From assembly GCF_018977255.1 (NCBI RefSeq), contig NW_024704742.1, positions 39,248,001 to 39,312,000 on the forward strand: DNA of 64,000 nucleotides. The letters run 5' to 3'. Made by a program: the position numbers and the translations under genes. This document shows, one piece after another, positions 5,146 to 45,800 of this stretch. Position 1 is the first letter of the stretch. Each line of letters opens with the position of its first letter. The DNA comes from Callorhinchus milii (lineage: Eukaryota). The notes under the pieces are model-generated. The model was given only the letters and a program-made list of their open reading frames with translations, made no database searches and was not told the DNA's origin.

Positions 5146-5470
5146 GTTGAGGAGCCTCTTGTCCCTGTGTAAGCTGCTCTCGAATGGTACTTGTTTCCAA
5201 GGAATACATGCAGTTTTAATTTAGAGAGGAAATCCTTTTTTTCTATTCCTGCTTTTTGAGGAAGTGCACAACAGTAACTGGAAGTGATGAAAATCTGCTT
5301 TTAATCTGCTTTCACTTATTGATTACTTGAGAATTGCAGAACTAGATTTCTATATCGAAATTGATATTGATATTGGGAAAGGGTTTCGTTGATGTATAAG
5401 AAGAAGAAATACATCTCCAGAAATCAAATTGCTTGAAGAGTATTGAAATTGCGAAGCATTTTTAAACAAA
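5146..5470 (+). other. ZNF518B: 5' UTR part of the ZNF518B coding exon; splice acceptor at 5144-5145
   Basis: Polypyrimidine tract tctttctcattatag|gttg upstream of the long ORF. Confidence 0.6.
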
Positions 5471-8400
5471 ATGCAGCTGAAATGGTTACGAGTGCTGTTG
5501 CCTAAAATGGAAGATATTGCAGGGAAAGAGAGTTTTGCCAATGCTGCGTCAAACGTCTCTATGAAATCTGGTACTGGAAGAAGGCAGACTGCAAGGAAGA
5601 CTGCAGGATTGAAGAAGTCTACTTTGGATCATTCTAGCGCAAAGAGACAACATTTTGCCTCAAACCAGCATTTGGGTAAAAATAAAGAGCCAACAGAGAT
5701 ATGTGGTGATTTTGAAGGATACAGAAAGGACATAAATGAAATGTTAATGTTTTGTGTTAAATGTAAAGATATCCAGCAATTTAGTTTTACAGAATTACAA
5801 CAGCACTGCCGACAAAACCATCCTGAAGATAAGCCTTTATTTGTTTGTAGCCAATGTGGGTTTACTATTGATGATGCAGAACAAATGAATGCACATGCAA
5901 TTTCGCATGAAATGGATAACGTATTGAATACAATGCAGAGTGAAAATAAGGAAGATCAATCCTCAATTGTAGAGGGAAAGCTACCAAAAAGGAGACATTT
6001 GAAGCCCAATACAATGTATTGTAATAAATGTAGATTTTCAACAAAAGATCCATTACAGTTTCAAAAACATATTCTGAGACATGAAGAAATTCAGTACAAG
6101 TGTGGACGATGTGAACGGGTCTGCTATACGAGGGGAGAATTTCAGCGCCACTCCGTGCAACATACAGGAACATTTCCCTTCAAATGTAGGTATTGTGATT
6201 ATGGTGCAGTCCGAAAGGATTATGTTGTAAAACACACTAAGGGTGTACATCGTGACATCATAAAAANCGGTGGGTCTGTACTTGTACTACCAATGAGAAA
6301 AGGCAGCAAGAAGAAAGCTGTCTCCAAAATGAAGAATGTATTGAAAGTTAAACGAACAGCAATGGAACAAAGTGAGAATTCGGCTAATGTTGGTTTTCAG
6401 AATCTGGAGGGATTTTCATTGCCTTTAGGACTGAAATCTATTAATGGATCTTCTGAAATGAAGGATTTGGATAATGCTGCTTCTCTGGAAGCTTGTGTGA
6501 ACACCTGTGATATTGTAAGTTTGGAAAACTCTATGGTAGAAAATACTAATATTTTGAATTGCTCTTCTATGGAGGCCAGCAAAGTCCAGCTGAAGCTGCA
6601 GACATCTTCCAACCACACAGTCCAACCTGGTGCTCCATTAACTCTGGTTGCTCCAGCACAGATGGTTATTCCTTCCAACTGCTTGGCTCAGCTCATAGAA
6701 ATAAAAACAGTTAATGAGAAACAACAATTGGTATTCAAAATAATACCATCGACTGCTGTCCCTATGTTAGAAGCTAATGCATCTGGAGTGATTGCAAAGC
6801 CATCACAAGAACTGAATAATGCCCACATTGTACAACCGCAGAATCGCAGAGTCTTAAATCAATCATGTACACTGCTGACAAACCATGTGGATCCCACAAA
6901 TGAACTGCTCCAGTTAGATCCTATAAATAAAATTGCAGATACTAAACAGAATAGAATGGGCCTAAATGCTAACTTTATCATTTCAAGGCCACTCTCTACG
7001 ATTGATGCAGAATCGGTATCAAACAAAAAGGGTGTATTAGAGTGTAGAAGTGAAGACAGTTCAAAAACAAATGGAAGAGAAGAAAATCTAACTTCAATAA
7101 GAGAGTCTAGTGAAAATCAGCTAAAAGATGAAGGTCTTGCTTATGAACAACTGGAAAAAGTTACAGAACACAGCAATTATGGAAAAATGACCTCTGGCAA
7201 AGGTTCATTTACAAAACCATTTGCTGAAAGTGTATATGTGACAAATAAAACTAAAATGATTTTTTGTAATGCTCAAATAGCAAAAGACGACAGTTGTAAA
7301 AGTTTTAGCAAAGCAGTTGTATCATTCCCCTCGTATAGGACTCAGCAAAATATGCAACTTAGCATCACATCTCCTCGTACTTTACTCACTGTTGACAAAG
7401 ATTCAGAATTACAGACTAAGTCATCCACCAACTGCACAACTCGGGCTGCTAAAAATAGTGATAAGCAAATTACCCCTAATTTATGTATAGAACAGACTGG
7501 ATTTATATCTAACAAGATGTTTCACACAGATTATTCAAAAAAGCAAAGACTTACTGAGCAATCTATTGGTATGGAAACTTGCAATAGTTCTAAAATTCAC
7601 AGTAAGTGTTCTGTTGCTTTAAAGGAATGTAGTAACATAACTCAATTCAATTCTGAGGATTGTAGTGTGAAGTGTGTTAACAATCCGTATCCTGCATTGG
7701 AGCTAGGGGTCAACAGCAGGAATAAGCTATATTTGTCCGTTCAGGACTCTGATGCATCTAAGCACAAACAAATTAATGACAGTACAGATAAAACTAAATC
7801 AAGCTGCAATCATATTTTGATTACACAGGCACAAAGTCAGAGTCCAAAAAGTACAGCAGATGTTTATGCAAATGGGTCATCTATATCTACATTCTTGAAT
7901 GAATTATTAGTGCCTGTGGGTGACAAAACTGAAAACAAACACTCATTGTCTCTTTCCAGTATGCAGCCTGCACAGGACTCCAAAGTATCTCGATCACAAG
8001 ATGCAGCAATAAATGCAGAGGTGGTTCCTGATTTTAGAAACCAGTGTGACTTAATTAGAGCTGAGACTATTGATGATCCTTCTGTCAGTATACAATGGCC
8101 TATCATTTCTTCTGTATTTTCTCTTAGCTGTGGTTCTAACGATGTGCCAGAAGCTATTCGATGGGATAATGAGCACGAGAATACTTGCTCTCCATCCAAT
8201 TCTGCACAAGAAACATCAATAGGTAGTAATTTGCAAACTAAATCAGATTCCCAGTTTGTAAAAAATGGAGATGGAAAGGAATATCAAAGAAACTGCTTAT
8301 TTGCATCATCTGAGCATACTGTAAAACCAGTTGATCACTTTTACGCTATTCAGACAAAGGCTGAGAATGTCATAACTAATTCTGGGCAAAAGGAGCTGAA

Positions 8401-10873
8401 CAAAAACTACCATTTTGGAGAGCCAAGTCAAAAAAATCCACCATGTGTGTCAACATGTGGAAATATAGACCTCAATACAACGTCGGTTCAATTAGTAACA
8501 ATGCTAAATGGAAACCCATTTCACCTGCACAATGGCAGTAACATCTTAGCTGAACATTCTTCACTACAACCATCTCTCCCGTCTCCAATATCACCTGTGG
8601 AAATTGATGATCATTCTTCTCCATGTCATTCCCAACAGTTACCTGATAATGTCAGTGTGTACAGGGATGTATCCCATATATCAAGTGGATATTCTAAAAA
8701 ATCAAGCAGTTCTAATGTCTCCTTGGGATCTTCTGTCACAAGCAGTACAGAAGGGAAGTGTGCTACAAAAATGGATAGCATTGTACAGAGAATAGAAACC
8801 AGTGATATGTCTGATACCAATGTGATTCCATTAAGCACTGTCACCCGAAACGATGAAACTAATTGCCCCTCAGTCTTGGGTCTTAAAACATTTCCACTTC
8901 TGTCCTCAGAACCTGGAACTTTTCAAAACAAAGTAATGCCGAGGACTCTATCTTCAACTGTAAGTGAACTCGGGATAGCTTCAGTTTCACCTAATTATAG
9001 CGACACCACTTTAGTTGCATCAATGCCTTGTGGAATTTCGCCATGTGGTTTGAAACCACACAAGTTATCTTCAGTAAATCCACATTTTACAATTGAAAAT
9101 CAATTGGTAATGCCACTTTCAAACAATTCTGAATCAACAACAATTCCAAATTCAAGAGGAAATTATTTTTTCCGGAATGTTTGCTCTTCTCCAGAGGAAG
9201 TACAAGAAGGCAAAACTGGGGTAGCATCCTCATCCGTCCATGGGCTTAGCTTGCAAGGTAATATTTCATCATTTGTTTCAAATTATATTCCAAGTGCAGG
9301 TTCCACAAGTGCCAATTCTGCTTCTAATCATACTGTTCAAGAACTTGGTGAAGAGTCTTACAGTTTTGATGAAACCATGCAGCTCATAGAAAAGATCACC
9401 GTTTCAACCAGAGCAAAACAACAAAGTTCTATATTGTCAAGCGCATCTGCTGTATGTAACCAAAGTAACCATAACAAAAGTCAATTGAGCATAAACAAAA
9501 CTACGTCTATCATACCTCTTGACATTGAACAAAGTAAACTTAAATCTGAAGTATCAGAGAACGTCTCTGAACAACCTGAACACGCCACAAAGATTCTAGT
9601 ATCACAGAGCACAGTTGAAAATGGATCTGTAAATTATGTTCAGGGACAGAAGGTATCAAATCCACATCAGCAGTCCAGCTCTGGAAACTCATGTGTTTCA
9701 CGACTGTTGAGTTCTACAAAATGCTGTATTGATTTTGACAATGCATCTTCACATTTCCTAGTAAAGCGTATTTTAGGCCCTGGGAATTCTAAACAAGGAA
9801 CTACCTACAGAGTTGTTCCCAGTGGTATTGTACTTAAAGTGTTGAATCCTGTTGATGACTCCAAGCAGGAGAAAATAACTGCTGCAACTGTACATTGCCA
9901 ATCCCTCCCTCAGTTAAAAAACCTTCACAGAGTATTGTGTCCCACACCAGTGACATTTAGCATGGCAGCAAAATCAGTGTTGAAAACACCATCTATGACA
10001 AAGAAGCAAAAAGCTTCTGCCAAAACTCAATCACAAAACAATCGCTCAGCTGAAGCAAAAGCCCAAGAAACCAACCTCTGTGATCAATCTTTTGTTTCCA
10101 CAGTGGGTCCAAATTCAACTGTATGTGGCACTGCTTCAGTTAAGACAGTTGCTCATCATAAATCTCAACTGTTAAAATCTGGGAGGAAAATGCCCCTGAA
10201 TCGCAGGAATATGAGAAAAAGAAAATTTGATCAGGTGCAGGATAATGTCACATTAAAAAAGACCCAAAAAAGGGATATTTGTCCTGTTTTTGCTGGTAGC
10301 CATGAGTTATTGAAAACAGCCCGCAGACTGAGGCTCAGACCCTTTAATGAAGATCAGTTGGTCAAATGTCCTCGTCGCAATCAGCCCGTAGTTGTGTTAA
10401 ACCATCCAGATGTGGATGCATCAGAGGTAATTAATGTAATGCAAACTATAGGCAAGTATAAAGGACATGTTCTCAAGGTGGTTTTATCTCAAAGAACTGT
10501 TATTTCTCTTAGGCTAAAAGAGAAACACCAAAGACGGGAGCTAAGAAACCGAAGCAAATCCATTGACAAAAGGAAGAACTGTAGGGTAGTCAGTCCGGTA
10601 AAAGAAAGACACATGTTGAAGATGAAATTAAAAAAGATCCATAAAAATAATTATCAAATAGTGAAAAATGTTCAAAATGAATTTCTGCAGATCAAATTCC
10701 ACTGTTGGTTTTGTGGACGAATGTTTTGCAATCAGGAAGAATGGATTGCTCATGGACAACGTCACTTAATGGAAGCCACCAGGGACTGGAATGATGTTAC
10801 CACCATTCAGGAAAGTGTAGTAGGTGAAAGCAAAGACTTGAACATGAAAAAAGGAGAAAGAAATCCTATATAG
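5471..10873 (+). CDS. ZNF518B: Zinc finger protein 518B (single coding exon, 1800 aa; alternative start M13 at 5507, aaaATGG)
   Basis: Finger cluster YCNKCRFSTKDPLQFQKH..YTRGEFQRH..HTGTFPFKCRYCDYGAVRKDYVVKHTKGVH matches human ZNF518B as recalled; C-terminal ZNF518 signatures QLVKCPRRNQPVVVLNHPD and HCWFCGRMFCNQEEWIAHGQRH; adjacent to CLNK. One N at 6267 (codon ANC, cannot be a stop). Confidence 0.92.
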   Translation: MQLKWLRVLLPKMEDIAGKESFANAASNVSMKSGTGRRQTARKTAGLKKSTLDHSSAKRQHFASNQHLGKNKEPTEICGDFEGYRKDINEMLMFCVKCKDIQQFSFTELQQHCRQNHPEDKPLFVCSQCGFTIDDAEQMNAHAISHEMDNVLNTMQSENKEDQSSIVEGKLPKRRHLKPNTMYCNKCRFSTKDPLQFQKHILRHEEIQYKCGRCERVCYTRGEFQRHSVQHTGTFPFKCRYCDYGAVRKDYVVKHTKGVHRDIIKXGGSVLVLPMRKGSKKKAVSKMKNVLKVKRTAMEQSENSANVGFQNLEGFSLPLGLKSINGSSEMKDLDNAASLEACVNTCDIVSLENSMVENTNILNCSSMEASKVQLKLQTSSNHTVQPGAPLTLVAPAQMVIPSNCLAQLIEIKTVNEKQQLVFKIIPSTAVPMLEANASGVIAKPSQELNNAHIVQPQNRRVLNQSCTLLTNHVDPTNELLQLDPINKIADTKQNRMGLNANFIISRPLSTIDAESVSNKKGVLECRSEDSSKTNGREENLTSIRESSENQLKDEGLAYEQLEKVTEHSNYGKMTSGKGSFTKPFAESVYVTNKTKMIFCNAQIAKDDSCKSFSKAVVSFPSYRTQQNMQLSITSPRTLLTVDKDSELQTKSSTNCTTRAAKNSDKQITPNLCIEQTGFISNKMFHTDYSKKQRLTEQSIGMETCNSSKIHSKCSVALKECSNITQFNSEDCSVKCVNNPYPALELGVNSRNKLYLSVQDSDASKHKQINDSTDKTKSSCNHILITQAQSQSPKSTADVYANGSSISTFLNELLVPVGDKTENKHSLSLSSMQPAQDSKVSRSQDAAINAEVVPDFRNQCDLIRAETIDDPSVSIQWPIISSVFSLSCGSNDVPEAIRWDNEHENTCSPSNSAQETSIGSNLQTKSDSQFVKNGDGKEYQRNCLFASSEHTVKPVDHFYAIQTKAENVITNSGQKELNKNYHFGEPSQKNPPCVSTCGNIDLNTTSVQLVTMLNGNPFHLHNGSNILAEHSSLQPSLPSPISPVEIDDHSSPCHSQQLPDNVSVYRDVSHISSGYSKKSSSSNVSLGSSVTSSTEGKCATKMDSIVQRIETSDMSDTNVIPLSTVTRNDETNCPSVLGLKTFPLLSSEPGTFQNKVMPRTLSSTVSELGIASVSPNYSDTTLVASMPCGISPCGLKPHKLSSVNPHFTIENQLVMPLSNNSESTTIPNSRGNYFFRNVCSSPEEVQEGKTGVASSSVHGLSLQGNISSFVSNYIPSAGSTSANSASNHTVQELGEESYSFDETMQLIEKITVSTRAKQQSSILSSASAVCNQSNHNKSQLSINKTTSIIPLDIEQSKLKSEVSENVSEQPEHATKILVSQSTVENGSVNYVQGQKVSNPHQQSSSGNSCVSRLLSSTKCCIDFDNASSHFLVKRILGPGNSKQGTTYRVVPSGIVLKVLNPVDDSKQEKITAATVHCQSLPQLKNLHRVLCPTPVTFSMAAKSVLKTPSMTKKQKASAKTQSQNNRSAEAKAQETNLCDQSFVSTVGPNSTVCGTASVKTVAHHKSQLLKSGRKMPLNRRNMRKRKFDQVQDNVTLKKTQKRDICPVFAGSHELLKTARRLRLRPFNEDQLVKCPRRNQPVVVLNHPDVDASEVINVMQTIGKYKGHVLKVVLSQRTVISLRLKEKHQRRELRNRSKSIDKRKNCRVVSPVKERHMLKMKLKKIHKNNYQIVKNVQNEFLQIKFHCWFCGRMFCNQEEWIAHGQRHLMEATRDWNDVTTIQESVVGESKDLNMKKGERNPI

Positions 10874-24869: not shown

Positions 24870-27800
24870 CTGTAGAGAAAGAAAAATGAGAGTGTTTCAC
24901 TATCTAATTCTAAACATATATACAAACTTGAAAAAGTATGTAATTTCTCGAACACAGTGACAATTTTCTCTTAAGTTGAAGTCTTATGACTTTGGAAACA
25001 GTGAGACCTGTTAAAAAGCAAGAATTATTTATCCATACACTCTTCTTGGTATCAATGTATATTGTTCTGAGCCAAAAAGTACTGCAATGTTTTAGAGTTT
25101 ATTTTTTTCTAAGTTTTGTTGTTTTATAATCTAATATGTAGATCTGACTTATTATTGAGTTCAGGTATAAACTAACTTTTAGATTAACTTATGCCCAGCA
25201 TTGGTTAATGATCATGATTATACATATTATACTGCCTATATAATTATCTGTTAATTTAAGTCAATTTCTTTTTCTGATGATTAATAATAATCCTTGCATT
25301 TGATAAAGCATGTCTTAACATATCTTCGAGGCATCTCAAAGTGCTTAACAGAAAATACTGTAAAGTGAATTGACTGAATATTTTGTCGGTGAAACGTGGT
25401 AGCCAATTGTGCATAGCAGTGTCCCACAAACTTCATGGATTGAGTGACCAAGGTTCCTACTTACTGTTAGGTAAACAGAGGCGTATGGAGTAAAAAAATT
25501 TGTCTAACATTTCACCCTATCTGGGAATCGAACCCAGGTTCTCTCGCTTGCGAGGTGACTGCTCTAACCAATGCGTTACAGGACTCCACAGACTCCAGTA
25601 AACCAAGTTGCACTTTTATCGTAGAGGATAAAAGTACAACTCGTTTTACTGTTTTGTTTAATTATGATAAAATTCCCATATGCTGATGTCAACTTTTGGT
25701 AGTCTAAACAGAAGTTTCCCTTTGCAAATTGTAAAAAAAAATCCAATCTGGTTTCAAACAAGTTCCACATGAGAGCATTGGTGCTTTTGTCCTGGGCCCA
25801 TGTTGCCTTTTTACATCTACAATTAACTAAAAACTGAAAACTGCTGCAGACAAATTTATTAGCAGTTCCATTGGCATCATAGTCTCCAGAACGGCTTGCA
25901 AATCAGAGAACTAACAGGCAATGTGTAATGGCACTGTTGCCTTGGCAACATTCTCAGCTGTTTTATTCCAGACACACGCCATCTGAATACAGGCTCTTCA
26001 GAATTACTTGAAAGCAAAAGGATCTGAATTTTCATCCTGTGATCTGACTGCTGGTTAAGGACATTCATGAATAGAAGCTCTATTAAGTTTGAATTCATAC
26101 TAAATTTAGCCTCTCCAAAATGTAATTGGAATTTTAGAAAAATAGCAGGTGTACAAATATTTAGTTCTTTTAAAAGGCAATTTCAACAGGATGAAACAAG
26201 GCTTGCACAGTTACATTAATAGTGTAATTAATTCTTACTTATTATCAACACACTGAGAGAAATTTAGAACCATTTTAAAAAACACAAGGAAAGCATTATT
26301 CAAAATAACATTTTATCTGAACTTCTATCTCTGAGGGAAGTAGAACAATAGTATATACTTTGCTCCAGGGGATAGTGGCTGTGAGTTAAAAGGTGATTTA
26401 CACCAAACCACTCCTGTTCAATATATAGTAATAATATAACCTGATATAATCCAAGCTAAGCTATAAGAATATATGGGAGCAGCAAGCAAACAAGCTTGTA
26501 TTTGAATGATATGAATAGAAAAGAAGGTCCATCTCTAAGTGTGGAGTCCTGTAGGTCAGTGGTTAGAACAATCACCTCGGAAGTGAGAGGACCTGGTTCG
26601 GTTCCTGGCAGGGCGAAAAGTTGGGCAAGTTTCCTTACTCCACACTCCTCTGTTTACCCAGCAGTAAGTAGGAACCCAGTTGTTAGTCGATTGGCGGATT
26701 GCTTTCCTGAGGATAATAATAATAATAATAATCCTTGCATTTTGATATAGTGCTTTTCACATCTTCTAGACTTCTCAACATTTTTCACAGAATATACTAT
26801 AAAGTGAATTGACCGCATATTTATGGGCGGAACACAGCAGCCAATTGCGCACAGCAGTGTCCCACAAACAGTCGTGGATTGAAGTGACCAATTTATTATT
26901 TTTGAGAGAATTAACATCAGGTGTATGGAATAAGGAAACTTGCCCAAGGTTTCCCCCTGCTGGGAATTGAAACCAGGTCTCTCGCTTGCAAGTCGAGTGC
27001 TCTAACCACTGAGCTACGGACTCCACCACAGGGATAATAATCCCTCAAAAAAAAATTTGGCCAGTCAATCCACAACTGTTTGCGGGACAGTGCTGTGTGT
27101 AATTGACTGCCGCGTTTCGTCCACAAATATACAGTCAATTCACTTTACAGTATATTCTGTGAAGCGCTTTGAGACATCTAGAAGACGTGAAAAGGCGCTG
27201 TATCAAATGCAAAGATTATTATTATAAAGGACATTGTAGCCTAGTAACACCTTGTTATATTGCAACTTTAGCACCAAATTCCTCCTGATAGGGAAATGTT
27301 ACACTGTAAGTCGGCAGCTGCAGCTCCAGTGAGATCATCATTGAGGTGTTGGGAGTAATGGAGTAATAGTGCAATGCCAATTCTAATAATAATTTCAGTA
27401 GTGCCATGGGATCTTTAACATCAAACTGAACAGGCGGAAAGGATCTTAGTTTAACAATTCATGTGAAGAACAGCAATTTTGACAATACAGCTCACCATCT
27501 AGCACTGCATTGGAGTATTAGCCAGAACTGTGAGTTCAAATTCACGATCTAGAACTTGAAACCACAACTTTTTAAACTTAGAGGCAACAGTGCTACCGAC
27601 TGAGCCAGGCTGATGGCACCCAAGTGTTGTTAAGCATTAGAATTTGATTTTTGTGAGCTTTGCATGTGGTAAGTATCCCAACTATAAAAAGTGCAAACAG
27701 AACACACATTTGATATTACAAATGCAGACTCAGTTGATAATGAAGACTTATTTACAATGAACAAATTATTGTATTCTCCAAAAGATGGAAGGAAAGGAAT

Positions 27801-30800
27801 TGAGGAAACTTACGTCATGTCCTCTGAGTCCAGTTCCCAAAGCATACTGTTTACTGTCCCCAAAGTATCGAATTTGAATGTTGTAAACTTTACTTCCATA
27901 ATATACAACCAATACGTATGGCTGATCTGGGGATTTTTTGGAACTGTCTCTGACCAAGAATGAACCATCCTAATTCAAGGAAAAGTGAGCGAATTCAACA
28001 GTTAATAATAGATTACATACAGAACTCTGCAACCCGTGTCTTCTCCCACACCAGGCTTTGTGACGCTATCACCCCCATCCTGACCCAACTCCACTGGCTT
28101 CCCATCACACAGATGATACAGTTCAAGATCCTGGTCCTCACCTTCAAAGCCCTCCATGGCCTTGCTCCCCACTACCTCCTAACCCCCTACTAACCTGCCC
28201 ACTTCCTCCGCTCAGCGGGCTCCGGCCTGCTTCACAACCTGATATAATAATAATAATAATAATTATTATAATCCTTGCATTTGATATAGCGCTTTACACG
28301 TCTTCTGGACGTCTCAAAGCGCTTTACAGAATATACTGTAAAGTGAATTGACCGTATATTTGTGGGCGAAACACAGCAGTCAATTGCGCACAGCAGTGTC
28401 CCACAAACAGTCGTGGATTGAGAATGATCAAGTTATTATTGTTTTGTTTTAGAGGTATCAGATATCTGACACAATTAAGATCACTGGCCTTTGAGATTTA
28501 CCCATAAATACAATTGCATGCCAAGGTAGCAGAACAGGTGGACACAGGTTCAGGGCTACAAAGTGCAATTTCAGGGAAGGCTTGATTCTGGTGGGGGTGG
28601 GTGTTGGTATTCTGGAAGGTTAAGACCAAATAGGCTTTTGAGTCTTTTTTATCCTAACCTGTAAGGTACTAGAGGGAAACCAATGCCTGTAGAACTGTAC
28701 CTTATCATACATCAGGACTTTGAGGAAGGGAGACAACTTTTAGGCAAAAAAATTACAACGTGGTGTAACTTGAAATTATTTTTACTGAAACATACCAGTT
28801 AGTACTACTGTAGAATGAATAAAGTAACATGATTGCAAAACAACATGTGCAATAAGCATAAAAACTTTATAAGCCTTTTAAAAATGTCTTGAGATTTCAT
28901 AGATTTTATTCATAAGCAGATACTTTATGTAAAATTATTTATTATGCATATTTGAATATTCAAGGTTTGGAGCATAACTGGTTACCTTATTGGTTTCTGT
29001 TAAAGCTCTTTCTGCTTCATAACGGTCATAGGAGCTAACATACCAATCGTTTCCTTCTAAATCCTGAAATATATTCATAATGGAAATGAATTTCTATTCA
29101 CATGCAAAATGAGAAATACTTTGAATAATCAGGCAATACAATTCAACATTTTGCTCTGTCCTCCCACTCACCAGAGACATGCATTGTGTGGACTAGGAAA
29201 GTATCTACTTACTTTTATCATCTCACCATCTTGCCTACAAAGCCTCCCAGTGGAAAGAAACATTTCTAACACCCCATTAAAACTCATAAATTGAGGTTGG
29301 ATTCATCCCAACTTTGATCTCAAATTTGCCACTACACATCAACTAAATTAAATGCTTGAAATTGACAGAGCCACTTCAGGTGTTAATTTCTATCAGTGCC
29401 AATTTGGAGATTCATGAATAAACTAATGGTGGACTTTGGACTCCGTTTCATTTTAATGATCAGTCTGTTCCTCAAATCATTCCTCTAAATTATCCTGCAA
29501 AACTGGCAATCTCCACTGTATGACACTAACCATCATTTTTTGTCATTGTCAAAGTAAAATACCTGTACATTTGTGGATACACAATTACAGCAATAAACTA
29601 TTACCATGCTTAAGAGTATCCAAACCATACTAAGAGTTCTACATACTGATGCCACTTACTCATGCAAATTTTGGTGAAACTGTAGTTAATGTGAATGCTG
29701 AACTTTCAACCCCAAGTCTTAGGTTTGGATCTCATTTCAAGAAATGGAGTTAATCATTTACCTTTGCAGAAAGTTTGGAAAAATGTTCAGCATTCTGTAC
29801 ACGAGGACTGGACTGCATTTCTGGTCTCCTGGGCATGTCTTGTGATGGCTTCACTGGAGATCATGAAAAATCCAAGGTACGTTAGTGATGTAAAACAAAC
29901 AGAATTAATATAACCCAAAGTAACTATGATGATTTTTAGTAGTAAGTTTATTTATAATTATAATTTGATAATGAAAAGATTCTGCAAAAACACTTTTATA
30001 ATTGTTTACGTTTAGGTAACGGAAATGGAACACAAACATTGATCTAGTAGATTTTAATATGTTAATATATTACATTAGATTATTAGAAGATGTTAATATA
30101 TTACAATATTTATTGCAAATATAAGTTAGACTATATATAGGTAAAAAATATGTTATACCTGGTATCTGTGATATTCTGTTAGAAGTGCTAGCATAAAAAC
30201 AAACATTGTTACAATCAGAAAAACATAAAGGAAACTTACAGCAGTATCATTTTAATGATTCGCATTTGTGTCCATTTTGAATTCTATTACTGCATGAAAA
30301 TTGTACAGCCTATTGTAATTCCTGCTCTGTGTCAATCTGAGGAATTCCCCATCTTAAAGATTTAGCAAAAAATATTTATTTTTAGGAGCTGAGTGGAAAG
30401 AATCTCTTCCCTCAGTAACTGCTTACCCAAGTCCAACAGATGTGTCAGACTGGTAGGTCCATCTTCATCAGTGCCCTGCAGTAGTGCAGACTCGCCTGGC
30501 ACACACATCAGACTACAAGACTGCCACAGAAGATTAACTCAGTTCTGATATTCCATATCAAGCATGTCACCTGGGACCCAGTTCAGCTCCAATGAGACCC
30601 CACTTATCTCTCCCAATGAGGATAATGCTTCTATTTTAAGTCTGAGGCCTTGGAAGTCTATTTTAAGATCATCCACCTGCCCCTCAGATACAATTGATGT
30701 GTGGCCCTGTGATACCAAGACAAGCTGGAAGAATCTTGTCTAATAAAACATACAGCCTCTATTTTTGGTATGGTGCATCACTGAGTTGAATGAATTTGTA

Positions 30801-33800
30801 CTAAATTCAATTTCCAGACAACTTTAAACATAAGTGTGTGCACATACACACACACACACACACACACATTTGTGATGTTTTTGTTGCAAAATGGCCAACA
30901 GCATTTGAGATGAAACGCTAGCTGTCTCCAACACTTTTAAAATGAACTTTCAGCTATTTATTTTAAGAAAGTTAACACCTTGTAGAATCTTACTTTCCAA
31001 AGTCTGTAATATCTTTTCTAAATAATCTTTTACACCACAAACAACTTGCATTTATATAGCTCACATTTGGGTAGGGTCTTGAGAGTGCTTTTAGCTTAAA
31101 TAACTAACACAGTGTTTATATGCACTTGGGATGTGCTCCCGACACGAAAGGCGCTATACAAATATAATCTTGTTGTTGTTGTTGAAGATGGCTTGAGAAG
31201 CATGGATCTTGATGGAAAATGACTGACTAAAGATTTTATTCTTTATTTTTAGTTGTACCTTGCTGACTGAGGGATCGGAGGTTTAGGTCGAAATGACAGT
31301 GGAAGCTGATCTCTGCTTGGTGAGTGCAAGTCTCTGCTCAGGAGGGGCGGGTCTCTGCTCAGGAGGGGCAGGTCTCTGCTCAGGATGGGTGGGCCTCTGC
31401 TTGGTATGGGTTGGCCTCTGCTTGGTATTGGCGGGTCTCTGTTCATGGGGGACAGGTCTCTGCTTGATGTGAGCTGGCCTTTACTTGGTGTGAGCTGGGC
31501 TCTGCTTGGTGTGGGCAGGTCTCTGCTTGGTGTGGGCGGGTCTCTTTTCGACAGGGGCGGGTCTCTGTTCAGTAGGGGCAGGTCTCTGTTCAGTAGGGGC
31601 GGGTCTCTGATCAGTAGGGGCGGGTCTCTGATCAGTAGGGGCGGGTCTCTTTTCAGTAGGGGCGGGTCTCTGTTCAGTAGGGGCGGGTCCCTGTTCAATA
31701 GGGGCGGGTCTCTGTTCAATAGGGGCGGGTCTCTGTTTATAAGGGGCGGGTCTCTGTTTAGTAGGGGCGGGTCTCTGTTCAGTAGGGGCGGGTTTCTGTT
31801 CAGTAGGGGCGGGTCTCTGTTCAGTAGGGGCGGGTCTCTGTTCAATAGGGGCGGGTCTCTGTTCAATAGGGGCGGGTCTCTGTTCAATAGGGGCGGGTCT
31901 CTGTTTATAAGGGGCGGGTCTCTGTTCAGTAGGGGCGGGTCTCTGTTCAGTAGGGGCGGGTCTCTGTTCAGTAGGGGCGGGTCTCTGTTCAGTAGGGGCG
32001 GGTCTCTGTTCAGTAGGGGCGGGTCTCTGTTCAGTAGGGGCGGGTCTCTGTTCAGTAGGGGCGGGTCTCTGTTCAGTAGGGGCGGGTCTCTGTTCAGTAG
32101 GGGCGGGTCTCTGTTCAGTAGGGGCGGGTTTCTGTTCAGTAGGGGCGGGTCTCTGTTCAGTAGGGGCGGGTCTCTGTTCAGTAGGGGCGGGTCTCTCTTC
32201 AGTAGGGGCGGGTCTCTGTTCGGTAGGGGCGGGTCTCTGTTCGGTAGCGGCGGGTCTCTGTTCGGTAGCGGCGGGTCTCTGTTCGGTAGGGGCGGGTCTC
32301 TGTTCGGTAGCGGCGGGTCTCTGCTCGGTAGCGGCGGGTCTCTGTATGGTGGGGGCGGATTCCTGGTTGGTGGATGAAGGTCTTTGGTTGGTGAAGGAAT
32401 GTCAGGCTGACATCTAAAATGAATGCCTAAATGAAAAAATCAAAATGAATACTTTTATGAATATAATATTTACAATGCTGTATAGCCATTTCTATTTAGT
32501 GTTCAATAATTTTCAGTAAATATGGACCGTGAAGTAAAGCATAAATACATTCATCTATTATTGTTTGCTTAATTTAAAAAAAAATCTGCTCTGAAGCTCC
32601 CCAATCCTGGTTGGCAATCTCCGGCTGAGACGATGGACAATGTACTGCTCCCAGTCCTCTGTCGCCTTTCACATTAGGAGGTGGTTATCTTTCCCCTCCC
32701 CACATTCCTCAAGTCCCACCCCTCAGCTTGGGTACCCAGCCAGTGCTTTGGGAGGTCCTCCCAATGTGAGAGGGCAATATTAATAATATAATATTCCTTG
32801 CATTTGATATAGCACTTTTCACGTCTTCTGGACATCTCAAAGCCCTTCACAGAATATACTGTAAAGTGAATTGACCGTATATTTGTGGACAAAACGCGGC
32901 AGCCAATTGCGCACAGCAGTGTCCCACAAACAGTCGTAGATTGAAAGTGACCAATTTATTACTGTTTTGATTTGGAGGGATTATTATTAGGCATGTGGAG
33001 TAAGGAAACTTGCCCAAGGTTTCACCCTGCCTGGAATTGAATCCAGGTGTCTCGTTTGCAAAGCGAATGCTCTAACCACTGAGATACAGGACGCCAATTA
33101 AATAATAATACAAAACACAAATTTGTCATATGTGGAATCACAGCAGTAACTTTATCCTAGCACCCATGCCATTAACATATTGCACCACCAGAACACATCT
33201 GCATTTACTCTTGCTCCCTCCCATTCACTAACATCAATTTTGGTCTCTTTTGGTGAATTCTCTTGGAATCCACCAGGTGGAGTAATTTACAACAGTTTCT
33301 CTGTGTCGGATAGAATTCATTAAAACAAAGAATATTTTTTGCCATTTATATTAAATATGGTGAACAAAGGAATATTTTTAATCCCTCTGTGTTCTACGGA
33401 CGGCATGGAAGTTCAGCTTCCTTTCCGAACATTTCAAAAATACTTGGTAATTTATTCTCAGCTGTCACAGCGCAATACATCTTGTATGTCTGAGGATTAA
33501 CTCTGTATATCTTGGCTATAAAATGGTTTAAATATTATCCCCGTTGTAACAGAGGAAACGACAAGGGAGTAAGGAAAGCTGTAATGGTTATGGAGGAGTA
33601 GGTATGTATTTGTCTGACAGATCAGGTAAGTACAGCATACATGTAAGAAAAAATATTTCCAGACACAAATGTTGAGGGTGTTGTAAGGGCACAGAGGTCC
33701 TGTATCATATACTCACCAGAGTCAGCTATCAACATCATGAATAGTATTTCAACATCACTAATGCCATATTGTACACTGGCTTTATTTGCTGACCAAAATG

Positions 33801-36800: not shown

Positions 36801-39800
36801 GGAGAAACTCTCTTCTCTTTTCGAATAGTGCCATGGGATCTTTAACATCTACCTGAAAAGCAGACAGAATCTCAGTTTAACATCTCATTCGAAGGATGGC
36901 ACCTCTGACAATGCAACACATCCTCAACTGCATTGGAGTGTCAGCCCGCACTTGTCAATTCAAAGTCTTTATGTGGGACTTGAATTTACAATCTTTCTCA
37001 GAGCTGAGAGTCCCAGCTGAACAGAATGACACGCAAGATTCAAGTAGTGTGGTTATAACTACAACCCTATATGCCATAGTCCATAGGGCAAGATTAACAT
37101 AGTCAGATAAGTACATTAAACCCCCATCTTACCAGACTCCGGGTATCCGGAATTTGGAACGAGTCAGACAGGACCCGAAAGCGAAAAATTGATAAAAGTT
37201 CCGTGGACTGAGTGCAGACTCATGCCGGCCACTCTCCTAGAGCGCTCCCCTACATCACCATGATTGTTGGTCTTCAGTGGCCAGGGATATTGACTTTGAT
37301 TCAGTTTGAATCCCTCAAGCAGAAGACAGCTTATTCGCTATTCAACAATTACAGTGACAGTACTGGCATTTACCAGTATTTTGAGGCGTTTTGCAGAAAA
37401 AAATCCAACGCTAAGAAAAGCTGGTAAATGCTGGCATTGTAATTACATTTAACTGGAAATTCTGACTTGATGACCATTGGTCTACTGTACTATAAAAGTA
37501 GCCAGTGTTTCATGCAGTCATACCTTTACCAAGTGTATTTGATTTCATATTACCTGGGTGGTGGTGCTGGTTGCTGTGGGGAAAAAAACAGTTCAGCTGT
37601 TGATGATCCAAATACAACATTAATTATACATTGTTATGCCACGTAATAGACTAGTTAGCAAAATTGAACTCCATGGGATAAAAGGGTTAAAAGGCAGTGT
37701 GGATATGAAATTGTCTAGGAGATAGAAAGTCGTGAATGGTTGTTTTTCAGTCTGGAGGGAAGTATACAGTGGTGTCCCCAGGGGTCACTGTCAGGTCCAC
37801 TGCTCTTTTTGATATATGTGAGTGATTTGGACTTGGGTATAGAAAGCAAACTTTTAAAGCTTGCAGATGGCACAAAACTTGGGAATGTAGTAAACAGTGA
37901 GGAGTATGGTAGCAGACTGCAGGAGATAGACAGACTGATAAAATGGACAGACGCGTGGCAGATGAAGTTTAATGCAGAGAAGTGTGAGGTGCTACATTTT
38001 AGGAAGAATGAGAAGAGGTAATATACACTAAATGGTCCAATTTTAAAGGGGGTTCAAGAGCAGAGTGACCTGGGGGTTCACATACACAAGTCTTAGAAGA
38101 TGGCAGGACAGGTTGATAGAGCTGTTAAGAAAGCATATGGGATCCTTGATTTTATAAATAAAGGCATAGAGTACAAAAGCAAGAAAGTTTTGCTACACAA
38201 TAACAATGTAAACAAAATTAAATTTCTATAGCACCTTTCACGTCCGGAGGACATCACAACCTTTATAAGTCACTGGTTAGGTCTCAGCTGGAGTATTGTG
38301 TCCAATTCTATGCATGATAATCTAGGAATGATATCAAAACCTTGTGCAGAAGAGATTTACCAGAATGGTATCAGCGATGAAGGACTTTAGTTATGTGGAG
38401 AGACTAGAGAAGCTGTGATTGTTCTCCTTAGAGCAGAGAAGGTTAAGGGGTGATTTAATAGAGGTGTTCAAAATTATGAAGGGTTTTGATAGAGTAGATA
38501 GGAAGAAACTGTTTCCTCTGGCAGGTGGGTCAGTAACCATGGCACATAGATTCAAGATAATTGGCAATAAAACCAGAGGGGAGATGAGGCAAAATTGTTT
38601 TACACAGAGAGTTGTTATGGACTGGAATTCATTGCTTGAAATGGTTGTGAAAACAGATTCAGAACAACTTTCAAAAGGGAATCGGATAGGTACTTGAAAA
38701 GGAAAGATTTGCAAGGATTTAGGGAAAGAGTGGGGGAGTGGGACTGATTGGAATATTACAGCACTCTATGCTATAATATTCTATGATTCTATGATTAAAT
38801 CGTGTGAAGCAGAGAGCTCTTGTGTTTTACTTGTGTTTGTAGCTTTACTCCAATTACTCTCAAAACAAAAAGAACCTTCTGTAACAAAACAAGAAAATAG
38901 AAGTGACCACGCCTTCTCCAGACCATGGGAAAGTTTGTCTGAGGCTTGTTCATTGAACCTGTCTCCTCAAGTTCTGTCCTTGGTCCAATTTAATATCACA
39001 AACATGATCCAAGCTTTGAAAACACTGAGAAGCCTAAATGAAACAGATGTCTATGATTCTCAAGCGTTTTCAAGGCTGGGATCATGTTCCTGATCATACT
39101 GAAGAACTAGATAAATAGAATAAAGTTTGCGGGCTTTTAAGTCTACAGCTGCTAAAATTATTTCAGCGAAAAATGATTCTTGTGAAAGGTGATAGATTCC
39201 TTCAAGGTAATAACAAAAAATGGCAATCGAGAACTAAAGGAAGATTCTACTTCCCGAGAGGAATGAACTGCCATCTAGCGACTGCTGGTGTTTTTTACAC
39301 AGTGACAGGCTTAAACATTGTAATCTCCACTTCCAATTTTTAACTAAACATTTTTAGCAACAAACTGAGTGACAGACTGATTATTAAAATCTGCTTGTGA
39401 GAAAATGAAATGATGAGAACAAAGATGTGATATAATTCAACAAAAGCATCCTTTTCATGGATTGCCAAACATAATGAACAATTTGAGATATCCTTACCCT
39501 GATTTCAAGGATCGAACTTTTCTCTGACAAACAAAAAGAAAAGTAGTATTGTTATAGCTTTTTCACAAACATGAAGTCAAGCTTAACCTACTCACAGCAC
39601 TACTAAATTTATTGCTAATTTGTTATGTTAAAATAGTACAGAAGTTGCAGTATAAATATTTTTCACATCTGGAACAGTTTCAGCAACATTGAGATTGATG
39701 AATTGCTGGGTCAAGGCCGTATAGTAACTGTTAAGAAATAAATATGCATATAAATGAAACCTAAACAAAACATCAGAAGATTGTGAGTTCAACGACATCA

Positions 39801-42800
39801 GTACTTTGAATTCATATAGTCCAGCCCAGTTCATTGCAAAGTGTTGCATTGTTTGAGTTACCATCCTTTGGATGAGATGTTAAACCAAGGTTAGTTTATC
39901 TGTCCAGGTGGCCATAAAAGATCCCATGGCACTATTTGAAAAGAGAAGGGAGTTTCTTCTGTGTCCTGACCAACAAACTCCCAAATAAAATTGGTCACTT
40001 ACTCCATGATTGTTTGTGGGATATTGCTTTGGGTAAATGGGTTGCTGCATTTGCCTCCAAAACACACAGTCACTACACTTTACAGTATATCATATGAAGT
40101 GCTTTGATATGTCTTTCGAACATGAAAGGCACTATATCAAATGCGATGATTATTATTGAAGATCATAGAAATCCCTTTTCAAGAGTAATGCTCATTGCCA
40201 AGAATAACTCTACTTCATTATTTTAATACTGGGAGTAATTTCCAGGTTCGCTTAGGCTATCCATAGAATTTGCCTTTGTGCCAACATGTGTACAGCAGTA
40301 ATGAAGGTGTCTATTTAGATAATTAAGAACTGATGGAAACGATTCATGAGTTTCTATAAATCTTTTCAACGGTTGTTAATTACACATGGTTAACTCAACT
40401 TCACAATTGTGCACGAGGTGTTAACCAAACCAATAAATTATACTCTACTGTAACTGAAACCAGCTATTTTTAATTCATTTGACATATAGGAAAATTATAT
40501 AGTTGGTCATGATACATATGCACCAGCACAGGCGACGGATAATATTGCAGTTACACTGTTGGGAAGGAATCAGCTTCACTCTTATGTGACTTGCACTTCC
40601 CCCTCCACATCACTTACAATAATGTCAGGAAAAAAAAGGGGTTGAGATTTTAAGTTTATTAACATGCTATTTGCTCATCAATAACACTAAAAGTACTCTG
40701 TTAAAGAACCAATAGCTTTGAATTGAGGATCAAGCCCAGGATAATATGTATTTACCATGTGTACACTGTGCAGTTACAAATTGTAGCCTAGAACTTATCT
40801 TAACCTCACAATAAACCAACAGTTGTATTATACTTTGGTTTTCTGAGACCTGCAATTATTACACTAACTAACCATGGCATCTTATTCTTAGATATGGTAC
40901 AGAAAAGATAGTTATCTCTTTGGATCTCTTTGAGACAAAAGCATAGTTCAATTTTTTTAAATTGGACATTAGGTGATTATACAGATGATTAGAGAAGAGT
41001 AAGATTCGTTTAAATCTAAGGTCTGTTTAATATAACTTGACGTGTTGTTTATTCCAAAACTTTCTCTTCAGCGAAAAGATTAATATGATGCAAAGTTGCA
41101 AATAATCAATCTTAAAATAAATATTTGCAAAGTAAAAGAAAAATCTCTCATCCAAATCATCAAATAAATCATAGCAGATTCATAATCCAGCCAAAAGTTT
41201 AACTGTCAAAATGAATCATGCCTAGAGATTACAGTAGGGCAGGTTGGAACTATCCATCCAGGCTTCTGAAGCATTAAACAAAACAGCAGACTAGGTACAC
41301 TGTAACTATCTGCCATTTAACTGTTAACCATAACTCTGTTCGTAACTCTGTCTGTTCAGCACCTTAGGAAGTCCTCCCGATGTGAAAGACGCTTTACAAA
41401 TGTAATTTTGTTGTTGTTGTTGTAACCAATAGTCCTTTTAGGCCTCAAGCAGGGAATCACCTTCAAGTTACATGGTCTCACGTTCTCCAGTCATTCTGAA
41501 GCCTTTGATTTTTCTTCGGTCCAAGTATTGACAGAAGGGCAAAGCCATTCAAGCCAGCAAATGTTTCTTGCCAGTCCCCAGGTAGGTTGTGACCTACCTG
41601 GGGACTGGCATACTACTGGTCATTTTTCCCCTTCCCACCCCATTCTGCTCCCACTCCCAGGTTGGATACCCAGCCAGCAGTGCCAAATGTTTTGTGATGT
41701 TCTCCCATGCAAAAGCTGCTATATAAATATAAATTGTATTGTATTTCTTCAGCCTTTTTTTGTAATCCTTCCATAATATTGCAAAGTTTTTTTTTTCAAT
41801 ATACAATCTTTCAAAATACAAAATCTTCTGAGCTCAATGGAGACTGAAAACTGCAAATTAATTACATGCTTATTGATAGAAGTGAACCAAACTTTCACTG
41901 TTTTTTTAAAAAAATATAACACATTAAGAGCCTACCTGGGGACTGGTGAGAAACATTTGCTGGCTTGAATGGCTTTGCCCTTCTGTCAACACTTGGACCT
42001 AAGAAAAATCAAAGGCTTCAGAATGACTGGAGTGTAATCCTCTATTATCACACATGGAATAGTTATAATAGTCTTCTTTATTTACTTTGAGTAAACATTG
42101 TAACTCGAAGATCATAATCGCACAAGAGGCTTGGTTGAAGATGGCTCTTGGACTATACAATCTCATTGTTCTGGAATCTCAACCTGATTGTCTTCCAATT
42201 ATAACATCAAGCTATTTATAAAACAAGTACAGTGTCTTGTCATTGGAATTGGACCAAGCTCAACCATAATTTGCATAAATTTGTCTCTCTTCCGCTCCTC
42301 CATTCCAGAAATAATTTCAAATCCTCTTTCTCCCACTGGAGTATGGTTCTATGATTGCTGTACACCAATAAAGAGGAAACGGAATTGAAATCATCAGTGT
42401 TCCTCATCTAAGTGGCCATTACTCATGTGTGAATGTTAACAGTGAGCACTGACAGGCTATCAAATGGCTGGAGCAGCAAAGCGGAGTCCGATCCAGTACT
42501 TTCACTCCACAAAATGCAAATCCCAGCAGACATATCTGGATAAGGATTGGGAACCCTGGCTGATTCTCCCCTCCCTTAAACCAAGGAGCACTGAAGTAAA
42601 TTGTAGTATCCAGACTGCTGTCAGGCTGAGATTAGCAAACTCAATACAATTATATTGTATTTAACTCAGCGCAGATCTGGATTCAAACCCAGACGTTCTG
42701 TTTTTTTAATAGTTAGATTCTCTTCTGATATTGTGTGTTATTCACAGATCTTTTATGAGTAGAAAAATATCATCTCGATAAAAATGCACTGGGTATATAG

Positions 42801-45800
42801 TCCCCAAAGGTAATGGGGGGTTGGGGGTAAGGGGGGGTGGGGGAGAAATTGTCTTTTGTAAAATTAAAGGTATTTGTAAGGGTCTCTATCGGAAGGGGCA
42901 GATGACCAGGCAGTTTAGATTTATAGAGTTAGAGTTTTAAGTTCTCTAAAACTTAAGGATATTTTTGAGATAAATCTTTATCAGAAGCGCAAAATACTGA
43001 TATAAGATCTTAATTCCCCTTTGACTACTTTAGTCAGAGGGTAGTAAAAATGTAGAATGGATTGCCTAAGAAAGTAATTGAGGCAAGTGTTAGCTACAAC
43101 AAAACATAACTAAATTGGTAGATGATGGCATTGGAATTGATGTGTACGAGAGCTTTATAAAATGGGACTGATAATAATAATAATCCTTGCATTTGATATA
43201 GTGCCTGACTGACAGACAGACTGACAGAATATGTTTCCACATGAGCCAGATACTCGGCCTACCCCACCCCACAAAAAGCTACACATTTCTCAAAGAGCCC
43301 TGTATAAAATGGCATCATTACAGTTTTACCAAAATACCGGAAAGCATACTACTAAACAGAAAACAGGAAACTGTTCTGAGTCCTTGCAGTCAGCTCTACA
43401 AGAGACTAACAAGTAAGCCTCAAAAGAAATGTCAAGTACAGGAAAACCACAAATAATTGAGTTTCAGTTTTTGAAGAAATTGGTGCGTTTGCTAAGAATG
43501 GAAGCCAAACCTTCAGAAGGTTGGTGAAGAGTTTCAGGGCCAGGAAACTGAATAACCGAACGTGAGTTGGATTCAGAAATATTCTTGCCTCTCTGCATTG
43601 AGAAAAAGAACATATATTGAAAAATAAATTACAAAATCAAGGCATCGGATGCATAGATTAAAAGTAACTTTTAACTAAGAGTAAAAGCAAAAGGACAATA
43701 GATTTAATTACTATAAACTAATGTAGAACGGCTAAACTATAATTATTAATCTGGGCAATATTACAACAACCATTGCCAATCTCATGTTTTAATAAATGTT
43801 CTGTGTTTGTTTCTAAAGTTCCGTTAAGGACAAGACAACGGCTGCTTTGGTTGTGAGGTACGGACAGAGGCAGACAATGTGACGGAGGCAGTTATGATCA
43901 GATACAATTAAAGAAGCTGCTTACATTGTTATTGTTCCCGCAGTATGTGTTGGGTTGAACATTCAACATTGAATGTTGTCTAATAACCCCTGAAGGTTGT
44001 TGAAACAGGGCTGGTCTATCCATTGGAACGCGTGTAGGTGGCAAAGATGGTAAACAATTCTTGTCTGTTATGATAAAGAAAACAAAATTCCAAGGGGTTT
44101 CTTTGTTCAATTCATGAGCCTTTATAATAACTCTGAAGCCTTATTCAACTGTAATACAATTCCAAATGTGTTAGTCAGGCTGTACAATGCTTATTATGTT
44201 TAAAAAAGGAGCACATTTCATATTCATATCACTTTCTGCAATGTATCTGAATATTACAGCAGAAACTGAAGTGGTGAATAAAAATAATTGCTTTTCAATC
44301 AAAACTGAGAAAAATGTATTCAAGCATAGCTACACAGTAATCTGATATCTAGCTTTATAAGCATCAATACCTTGTGAATTGTTTTTGATATGTAACAGTG
44401 GGTTAAACACAGACTATAAACTAGTTTCCTTGTTGTCATATGGACTTTGTTAGATGAGGTAGTAAACTATTGAGAGCACAACACAGCACAATAAAATTGA
44501 AATACGGTAACTTGAAGTTAATCATTTCCTAACCGTCGTACAAGCAAATCATAATCTTTGCAGTGAGTTCAAATTATAGTTGAGCTTTTTAAAAATATAC
44601 AATAAATCTTCAATGGTTTTGGAGTAGTTACGTCACAAATATTTAGCAATGTGAAGAATGATCTGGGTGTTTAGAAGTTTGTGTTCACTGTAAGAAAGAA
44701 ACAAGCAGAAACAATTTCATTTGGAGCTGACTTCAGAATCTTCCAATACACATACACTCAGCATTAGCTGCAGCCGATCAGTAGAGGGCAAGAATGTTCA
44801 ATCTTCATGTATTGGTTCAACTGTACGAGAAAAATATTTCTCGAGAGCTGTAAATCTTTCCAGCTGTACAAAGCCTGAAAGCTCTAATGTTACATTTTCC
44901 ATCTTTTTTTTCCTCTCGTGTTCCCAACTTCTTTTTCCTCTCTTAAAGATGTATGGGATTTATCCCATGAGCATTCTCAGCGCTATAGTGACTCATTGAT
45001 ATGATCATTCTTTACGTGTGAATCTAGTCAATGAGTGGTTATGGGGTATTCAACCACAAAGGACATCACAGCTAAATTCTGTCCTCAGCTAATGTCATGT
45101 ACATGGACTTTCCAGGAATTACATTATATTAACAATCAGAAACAGGGCTGGGCTGATTCCACCACCACCCACCCTCCGCCACTACCCACCACACACACGT
45201 ACCTATGATTAGATTTTGAGCCTGGGTGAAGCACTCCTATTACTCATTTGGCTGCTGTCAGTAAGACATGCACAGAGTAGTGATCTAATTCTGATTGACA
45301 AGGCTCATTAACATATAAAATAATCCTTGCATTCACCCAAAGAAACATAGGAGGAGTAATGTTTCATATTTAATAACACTCAGACACACATCAGAGAGCT
45401 GAAATTTCTCCTGGTCTTTGTCCTAGGACCATTGTTTTAAAATTTATAATTGTGCAAAATATTGCAAAATTCTTAAATTCAGGTTTTAACATAACATAAC
45501 ATGTAGGACAGGAGTAGGCCATTCGGCCCTTCGAGCCTGCCCTGCCATTCAATCATGGCTGATCTTCTAATCTAACTTCAGCTAACAACCTAACCCTGCC
45601 TTATCCCCATATCCCTTAATTTGTTTTCCACACATTGATTTAAAAAAATTGGGTCTGAAAATTTTTTTGTAGGTCTTATCAATAAAAATAATACTCCTTG
45701 CATATGATATAGTACTTTTCACGTCTTTGAGACGTTTCAAAGCATTTCACGGAATATAAGAATAATAATAATCCTTGCATTTGATATAGCGCTTTTCACC

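Follow-up and report, generated by a model that had tools for sequence, protein, structure and literature searches.

How did an intron of the CLNK gene of Callorhinchus milii come to hold an antisense copy of the exon that precedes it, complete with both of its splice sites, and does this copy control how the exon is used? The gene lies on the minus strand of a stretch of 64,000 nucleotides (nt) of contig NW_024704742.1 (positions 39,248,001 to 39,312,000; RefSeq assembly GCF_018977255.1), which is the window analysed here and to which all positions below refer. The exon encodes a motif of the type by which the adaptor SLP-76 binds Gads, and a preliminary description, made from the letters of the sequence alone, had proposed that the copy acts as a splicing switch for it. 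The structure is real and unusual, and a cassette exon bearing such a motif is testable biology; nothing so far ties the copy to a function. The choice between including and skipping the exon is most likely older than the copy and independent of it, and the copy itself is most likely neutral or nearly so.

The arms of the inverted repeat (41485-41586 and 41931-42032) are each 102 nt long, are complementary at 98 of 102 positions (96%) and are separated by a spacer of 344 nt. The right arm is the original; the segment copied from it begins in the upstream intron (34 nt), takes in all 63 nt of the exon and ends 5 nt into the donor. Arms, identity, spacer and extent had all been given in these terms in the preliminary description, and each was recovered unchanged. 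The left-arm copy is also found by tblastn, as a plus-strand match to the peptide encoded by the exon. The computed probability of at least 98 matches in 102 is about 1e-53 per placement, and the corresponding genome-wide expectation of about 4e-41 excludes a chance origin of the match.

The sequence of the arms is private to this locus. When 41400-42120 was searched against the 0.99-Gb genome of the animal itself, 40 of 474 first-look candidates were scored and 43 rows were listed; among the matches listed, the arm segments match each other only, 39 rows belong to a dispersed repeat that lies in the spacer, and one row is a small palindrome. Within the window we found 24 inverted pairs of at least 40 nt and no more than 3 kb apart, and the CLNK pair alone reaches at least 100 nt at 95% or better. 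The base rate was taken from a small sample of 264 kb, made up of twenty 10-kb pieces of contig C1 together with the window. It contains 26 inverted pairs of at least 60 nt, of which the CLNK pair alone stands at 95% or above, and the 200 kb outside the window contain no pair of at least 60 nt at 90% or above. Young local inverted repeats are uncommon in this sample of the genome.

The copy is part of a larger block of 126 nt (41485-41610), which lies some 320 nt downstream of the 63-nt exon, in the intron that follows it. Its components are the antisense acceptor, exon and donor start, a loop of 6 nt, and a sense piece of 18 nt which snaps back on the arm and which we term the decoy. Sixteen nt of the decoy (41593-41608) are 100% identical to 41931-41946, and together with the loop and the end of the left arm (41569-41586) it makes up a local hairpin of 42 nt. 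This snap-back piece and its hairpin are absent from the preliminary description. The dispersed repeat of the spacer may be truncated at its 5' end, close to the decoy. Rfam matches resembling microRNA (miRNA) genes at 41567-41612 we take to be generic hairpin resemblance; all Rfam matches within 41000-42600 were below threshold, the best being mir-28 with 29.1 bits against a gathering cut-off of 64, and a miRNA precursor was rejected.

The four differences between the arms allow some of the subsequent changes to be assigned. The A of the acceptor (42000) is C in the copy, such that AG becomes CG at 41517. Exon position 41990 and its counterpart at 41527 are G and A, respectively, so that the exon reads Val and the copy Ile; the G>A change at 41527 results in a G.U pair in the RNA duplex. 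Since sharks have Val at this site, the change to Ile is assigned to the copy. The remaining two differences are adjacent, CA in the exon (41948-41947) and TG in the copy (41569-41570). The decoy has TG like the left arm and not CA like the exon, and the CA change (Cys to His) is therefore assigned to the exon lineage; the simplest reading would have the decoy templated from the new left arm.

The motif-bearing exon and its skipping

The peptide encoded by the exon includes PSVDRRAKP, which fits P-x-[VI]-[DN]-R-x-x-K-P, the consensus pattern for RxxK-type ligands of the C-terminal SH3 domains of Gads and Grb2. The same pattern is fitted by PSIDRSTKP of SLP-76, as the preliminary description had held for the form PxxDRxxKP. 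The C-terminal SH3 domain of Gads is reported to bind the RxxK motif of SLP-76 at 9-20 nM, and Grb2 to do so about 500-fold more weakly (PMC6669380). Judged from its motif, the exon of C. milii CLNK would also be expected to bind Gads or Grb2. For mouse Clnk, Cao et al. 1999 described the motif as 'not strictly conserved' and raised the possibility that Gads is not bound (PMC2195705), a point which is repeated in a review (PMC6603179).

The exon is orthologous to the GPAVDRTVKPF... segment of sharks, and 28 of 32 chondrichthyan CLNK models have P.[VIL]DR..KP at the aligned place, mostly in the form GPAVDRTVKP. An exhaustive search with full-length shark CLNK newly returned 142 representatives of the family; 54 of these possess P..[DN]R..KP and 65 the looser P...R..KP. 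The variants in CLNK include PSVNRNLKP in sturgeon, PAVNRDLKP in gar, PAVNRNLKP or PAVNRACKP in teleosts, and PAVNRSLKP in frogs; those in LCP2/SLP-76 include PSIDRSTKP (felids) and PSIDRSKKP (bichir), and a BLNK cluster has PMVNRSTKP. The presence of the motif in CLNK, LCP2/SLP-76 and BLNK indicates that it is ancestral to the whole adaptor family, and by these comparisons the exon and its motif are old. Whatever the copy does, in the CLNK of cartilaginous fishes the RxxK-type motif sits on its own symmetric exon of 63 nt.

The residue before the Arg of the motif follows a pattern of its own. It is Asp in the CLNK of cartilaginous fishes, as in SLP-76 (P-x-V-D-R), and Asn in that of sturgeon, gar, teleosts and frogs, as in BLNK (P-x-V-N-R). 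Three bird CLNK proteins (P0027, P0032 and P0042) have no such motif by eye.

With 63 nt and phase 1-1 the exon is symmetric, and the joining of 43511 to 39523 preserves the frame, so that in-frame skipping had been correctly foreseen. Four of the five public C. milii models, which form a single 90% cluster, contain the 21 residues of the exon; in the fifth (P0126; XP_007887174.1, 335 amino acids) exactly those 21 residues are missing. P0123, the sole member listed with a current NCBI source, includes the exon; the other three including models, like P0126, belong to an older annotation set. A protein search with 43928-44074 (minus strand) for proteins derived from read assemblies and covering the exon returned one cluster only, all of it annotation models.

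The same event is seen in models of the sevengill shark Heptranchias perlo, in which isoform X3 (P0142, 468 amino acids) is without exactly the orthologous 21 residues that are present in X1 (489 amino acids); seven of the eight isoforms examined include the orthologous exon. The other three chondrichthyan models that do not have the motif are short or partial, and among the models of herring, gar, sturgeon and surfperch every full-length form retains it. In both C. milii and H. perlo the evidence for inclusion and skipping consists of computed gene models; model isoforms of this type are as a rule made only with transcript support. Since a model of H. perlo skips the orthologous exon, the cassette behaviour is probably ancestral, that is, older than the copy, independent of it and not needing it. 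Exact skipping in the models of two distant cartilaginous fishes suggests an old pair of on and off isoforms. Conversely, the inclusion of the exon in four of five C. milii models indicates that the duplex does not prevent inclusion. The proposal that the copy toggles CLNK between two isoforms stands only in part: included and exactly skipped forms are both listed among the public models, but the skipping in H. perlo X3 weakens the case for the copy as the cause.

Predicted pairing, origin of the copy and competing explanations

The minus-strand RNA of 42045-41470 was folded by thermodynamic prediction, which treats it as naked RNA. The minimum free energy (MFE) is -269.0 kcal/mol, against -146 +/- 6 for shuffled sequences (z = -19), and with the antisense arm blocked the value is -109 kcal/mol, a loss of approximately 160 kcal/mol. 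In the MFE fold 42032-41949 pairs with 41485-41568 in a long duplex of about 84 positions, which takes in the pyrimidine tract, the acceptor AG and the first 50 of the 63 nt of the exon; the A of the AG is its one unpaired mismatch. The decoy pairs with the end of the antisense arm, and as a result the donor and the last 13 nt of the exon are predicted to be left out of the long duplex. The full duplex of 102 positions forms only when the decoy is held unpaired, at -256.6 kcal/mol, which is 12.4 kcal/mol worse. What one would look for in a regulatory stem is found in part. Stable complementarity between exon and intron is present (98 of 102 positions; -269 against -109 kcal/mol), but the two splice sites do not both lie inside the stem in the predicted MFE fold (ddG 12.4 kcal/mol). 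The stem of about 100 bp that the preliminary description expected to mask precisely this exon is accordingly borne out by the prediction as to its great stability and length and the position of the acceptor, but not as to the donor and the end of the exon.

We lean towards the explanation that the copy is a scar, neutral or nearly so, next to an old cassette exon. From the layout we infer that it arose by templated inverted duplication. A nascent strand would have changed template, taking up the opposite strand of the exon close by and copying 102 nt of it; the new strand would then have folded back on itself for 18 nt before rejoining, in an event resembling microhomology-mediated break-induced replication (MMBIR), fork stalling and template switching (FoSTeS) or a templated insertion of the polymerase-theta type. 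The inverted copy would thus have landed next to a cassette exon that was already old, the include/skip choice of which would predate it and would not depend on it. In the pre-mRNA the acceptor region and the exon as far as its 50th nt could form a duplex with the copy, with the decoy hairpin leaving the donor free, and the effect of the copy would at most be a bias towards lower inclusion or the attraction of ADAR. The divergence of 4% suggests an age of roughly 10-40 million years at an assumed rate of 0.5-2e-9 per site per year, and the copy could be older than this if gene conversion keeps the arms alike. That there is a single copy, with 4% divergence and a snap-back layout, points to a later event restricted to the lineage.

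Two other origins were considered and rejected. A miniature inverted-repeat transposable element with terminal repeats of 102 nt, one of them exonised, is at variance with arms that are single-copy among the matches listed and with an exon that is orthologous to shark CLNK. The splitting of one dispersed repeat by an insertion is at variance with the fact that the fragment at 41351-41411 and the repeat at 41617-41753 correspond to overlapping parts of the family unit.

Since fold-back reads can give inverted duplications, it might be asked if the palindrome is false, the product of a chimeric or fold-back read. We regard this as very improbable. The four differences in 102 positions, together with an old dispersed repeat within the 344 nt of other sequence between the arms, argue against a perfect palindrome of the assembly; the site is inside a contig of 139 Mb, four other sequencing runs contain 83-88% of the sampled words of 39300-43700, and a contig from one read set (X1) covers spacer position 41788. 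Among those listed, pieces of X1 end at 41400 and start at 42003; if both arms are real, a word-graph assembler would be expected to break at the border of the words they have in common, but these ends were not counted as evidence. An effect of the copy on splicing or on adenosine-to-inosine (A-to-I) editing is plausible. As a modulator of splicing the antisense arm, transcribed about 450 nt after the acceptor, would pair with the polypyrimidine tract, the AG and most of the exon and compete with U2AF and exon definition, while the decoy would tune the masking of the donor; skipping would be raised and CLNK without its RxxK motif produced. The stability of the predicted duplex (the z of -19 and the approximately 160 kcal/mol lost on blocking the arm), the acceptor region wholly within it and the presence of a skipped isoform among the public models all accord with this. 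RNA stems that alter exon use also have precedent, in that inverted Alu pairs are reported to promote exon skipping (PMC13019027), conserved complementary regions to be associated with pre-mRNA processing (PMC8052449) and a 5' splice site to be open to attenuation by secondary structure (PMC2794156). The claim of a duplex acting as a switch is weakened, however, by the shark model which skips the same exon, by the inclusion of the exon in most C. milii models and by the predicted free donor. Moreover, the exon is served by a good pyrimidine tract and by CAG|GTAGG as its donor, and a spacer of 344 nt gives splicing factors time to bind before the arms can pair. On balance we consider a modulator of splicing unlikely, if worth keeping in view.

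Less likely again is a role as ADAR substrate, in which the copy would be a newborn exon complementary sequence directing A-to-I editing before splicing, with recoding of the exon or weakening of the duplex as the outcome; the adenosines concerned would include those of the codons for Arg and Lys in the RxxK core. The geometry is that of known editing sites, in which an intronic complementary sequence pairs with the edited exon (PMC4053846). The predicted duplex is long and nearly perfect, and PF02137 matches 20 exon-level places above cut-off on five contigs of this genome, which points to several genes with deaminase domains of the ADAR type. Against this, the four protein models that include the exon are 100% identical to the genomic exon (a weak argument, since such models follow the genome), and long perfect duplexes are edited promiscuously and not site-specifically, so that recoding would be noisy. 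A broader proposal treats the locus as an exon complementary sequence at its birth, the duplex of which would lower inclusion of the RxxK exon in immune cells or recode its Arg/Lys core, with the decoy setting the extent of donor masking; this we likewise hold to be improbable.

Several considerations weigh against the neutral scar. The isoforms on which it draws are computed models, and the skipped C. milii model is from the older annotation set. The intron of H. perlo could hold an independent complementary element of its own. A near-perfect duplex of 84 positions over the acceptor is large enough to have some effect, duplexes of about this size being able to matter both in the sequestration of splice sites and as ADAR substrates, and neutrality is in this respect an assumption. 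It must also be accepted as coincidence that a rare young inverted repeat struck a cassette exon carrying a motif. Finally, no microhomology was seen at the junctions of the block, and the mechanism is read from the layout alone.

The host gene and its surroundings

The host gene is the immune adaptor gene CLNK of the elephant shark, Callorhinchus milii, and the name given to it beforehand is supported by an SH2 match, named homologues and a collinear chain of exons. PF00017 (SH2) matches at 27769-27969 on the minus strand (E 3.2e-5, 24.4 bits against a cut-off of 21) and is the sole SH2 match in 150 minus-strand frames. The top match of the SH2 exon, with 100% identity, is a protein named cytokine-dependent hematopoietic cell linker [Callorhinchus milii], and nearly all of the best 120 of 320 matches (E<=0.001) are named CLNK, not LCP2 or BLNK. 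By tblastn, the public C. milii models and the CLNK proteins of sharks align in collinear order along the minus strand, between 53116 and 24744. The exons on either side of the cassette exon (43592-43511 and 39523-39498) are as originally placed. The coordinates of the features are collected in Table 1.

Table 1. Features of the CLNK locus and of the inverted repeat (window positions)
Feature	Position	Strand	Description
CLNK cassette exon	41936-41998	-	63 nt, phase 1-1, (G) + 20 residues; 100% tblastn match to public C. milii models
Right arm	41931-42032	-	original segment: 34-nt intron end, 63-nt exon, first 5 donor nt
Intron part of right arm	42032-41999	-	polypyrimidine tract and acceptor AG at 42000-41999
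Donor part of right arm	41935-41931	-	GTAGG
Left arm	41485-41586	+	copy of right arm, sense on + strand and hence antisense inside CLNK pre-mRNA; 4 differences
Loop	41587-41592	strandless	ttgtga, 6 nt between antisense arm and snap-back piece
Sense decoy (snap-back piece)	41593-41610	-	18 nt: last 13 exon nt + GTAGG, in CLNK orientation
Dispersed repeat copy in spacer	41617-41753	not assigned	39 listed copies in the genome are 74-84% identical to it
CLNK coding exons recognised in window	24744-53116	-	collinear tblastn matches
First recognised CLNK exon	53116-53072	-	tblastn
Upstream neighbour exon	43511-43592	-	82 nt, 27 residues, ends phase 1; frame and tblastn
Downstream neighbour exon	39498-39523	-	26 nt, (E)KSSILEIR; frame and tblastn
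SH2 exon	27969-27814	-	156 nt; Pfam and homologues
Last coding CLNK exon	24869-24744	-	tblastn

The public annotation divides CLNK into a C-terminal 'CLNK' of 223 amino acids (P0002) and the N-terminal models P0122-P0126, which are named 'extensin-like' or 'uncharacterized LOC103175790'. The split between the 'extensin-like' part and the 223-residue 'CLNK' falls at an array of 48.4 copies of a 21-bp unit (91% matches, no indels) at 31330-32345, inside a minus-strand CLNK coding exon of about 32427-31260. The array is in frame, encoding the heptad NRDPPLL and its variants, and the frame is open for 396 codons; shark CLNK proteins (431-489 amino acids) are without it. If the heptad array is translated, the CLNK protein would be about twice its usual length. 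P0123, the current NCBI model of the N-terminal part (227 amino acids), ends in an alternative terminal coding exon at 38953-39033 on the minus strand (ASQCFQSL...RRQVQ) and does not reach 35940. It may represent a truncated isoform with the RxxK exon and no SH2 domain, or it may be an artefact of annotation.

An inverted pair of dispersed repeats (27065-27194 and 28292-28421; 130 nt, 90% complementary) flanks the SH2 exon, a layout of the 'loop-out' type described for inverted Alu pairs, and the stretch from 23.8 to 28.4 kb contains several more inverted repeat pairs. A single open frame of 1808 codons (5447-10870, plus strand) converges on the 3' end of CLNK and has C2H2 zinc-finger matches towards either end, to PF13465 (residues 232-254) and PF00096 (1751-1773); it is possibly the ZNF518-like neighbour of CLNK known from other vertebrates. 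Long open frames at 1138-2096 and 130-763, in several frames and on both strands, have proline-rich translations of low complexity and are probably simple-repeat DNA.

Comparison with known systems

RNA stems that join exon to intron or intron to intron and act on splicing or editing belong to a known kind. Among the titles and abstracts listed in the literature searches, none mentions a complete exon copied in antisense, splice sites included, into the intron beside it; no search was aimed specifically at such copies. As to its origin, the CLNK block resembles the products of MMBIR/FoSTeS and polymerase-theta insertion in that a neighbouring sequence has been duplicated in reverse and one end of the insert carries a short palindrome that folds back. 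It differs in that no microhomology was seen at its junctions, and 126 nt is long for an insertion by polymerase theta. A neutral copy would be no more than an ordinary scar of repair.

With respect to the motif the closest parallel is the SLP-76 RxxK/Gads system. PSVDRRAKP of the exon and PSIDRSTKP of LCP2 share one pattern, but affinity for Gads has been measured for SLP-76 while CLNK is known here by its sequence motif, and the CLNK of bony vertebrates has N where that of cartilaginous fishes and SLP-76 have D. If the duplex does act, the stem would bear upon an exon that keeps or removes the sole motif expected to couple CLNK to adaptors of the Grb2 family.

In loop-out skipping by inverted Alu elements, an inverted repeat of the pre-mRNA is reported to form a stem by which the skipping of a cassette exon is promoted (PMC13019027), and the CLNK stem is a possible parallel. 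The Alu arms are described there as transposons in the two flanking introns, with the exon in the loop, whereas in CLNK the exon and its acceptor themselves constitute one arm, and the sequence is unique and not a transposon. Splice-site sequestration and conserved complementary regions offer a second likeness, since base pairing over a splice site is reported to lower its use (PMC2794156, PMC8052449). The known stems are short and conserved; that of CLNK is much longer, and its donor is predicted to escape by way of the decoy.

Closest in geometry are the exon complementary sequences of ADAR substrates such as the glutamate-receptor pre-mRNAs, where the exon is reported to pair with an exon complementary sequence in the downstream intron of the same pre-mRNA and can do so only before splicing (PMC4053846). 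The CLNK copy differs in being 102 nt long, near-perfect and apparently young, and in including the splice sites. Known exon complementary duplexes are conserved across vertebrates, short and imperfect. Should the CLNK duplex affect splicing or editing, it would provide a dated natural example of a regulatory exon-intron stem born in one mutational step, and, as an exon complementary sequence met soon after its birth, it would show how regulatory duplexes between exon and intron come about.

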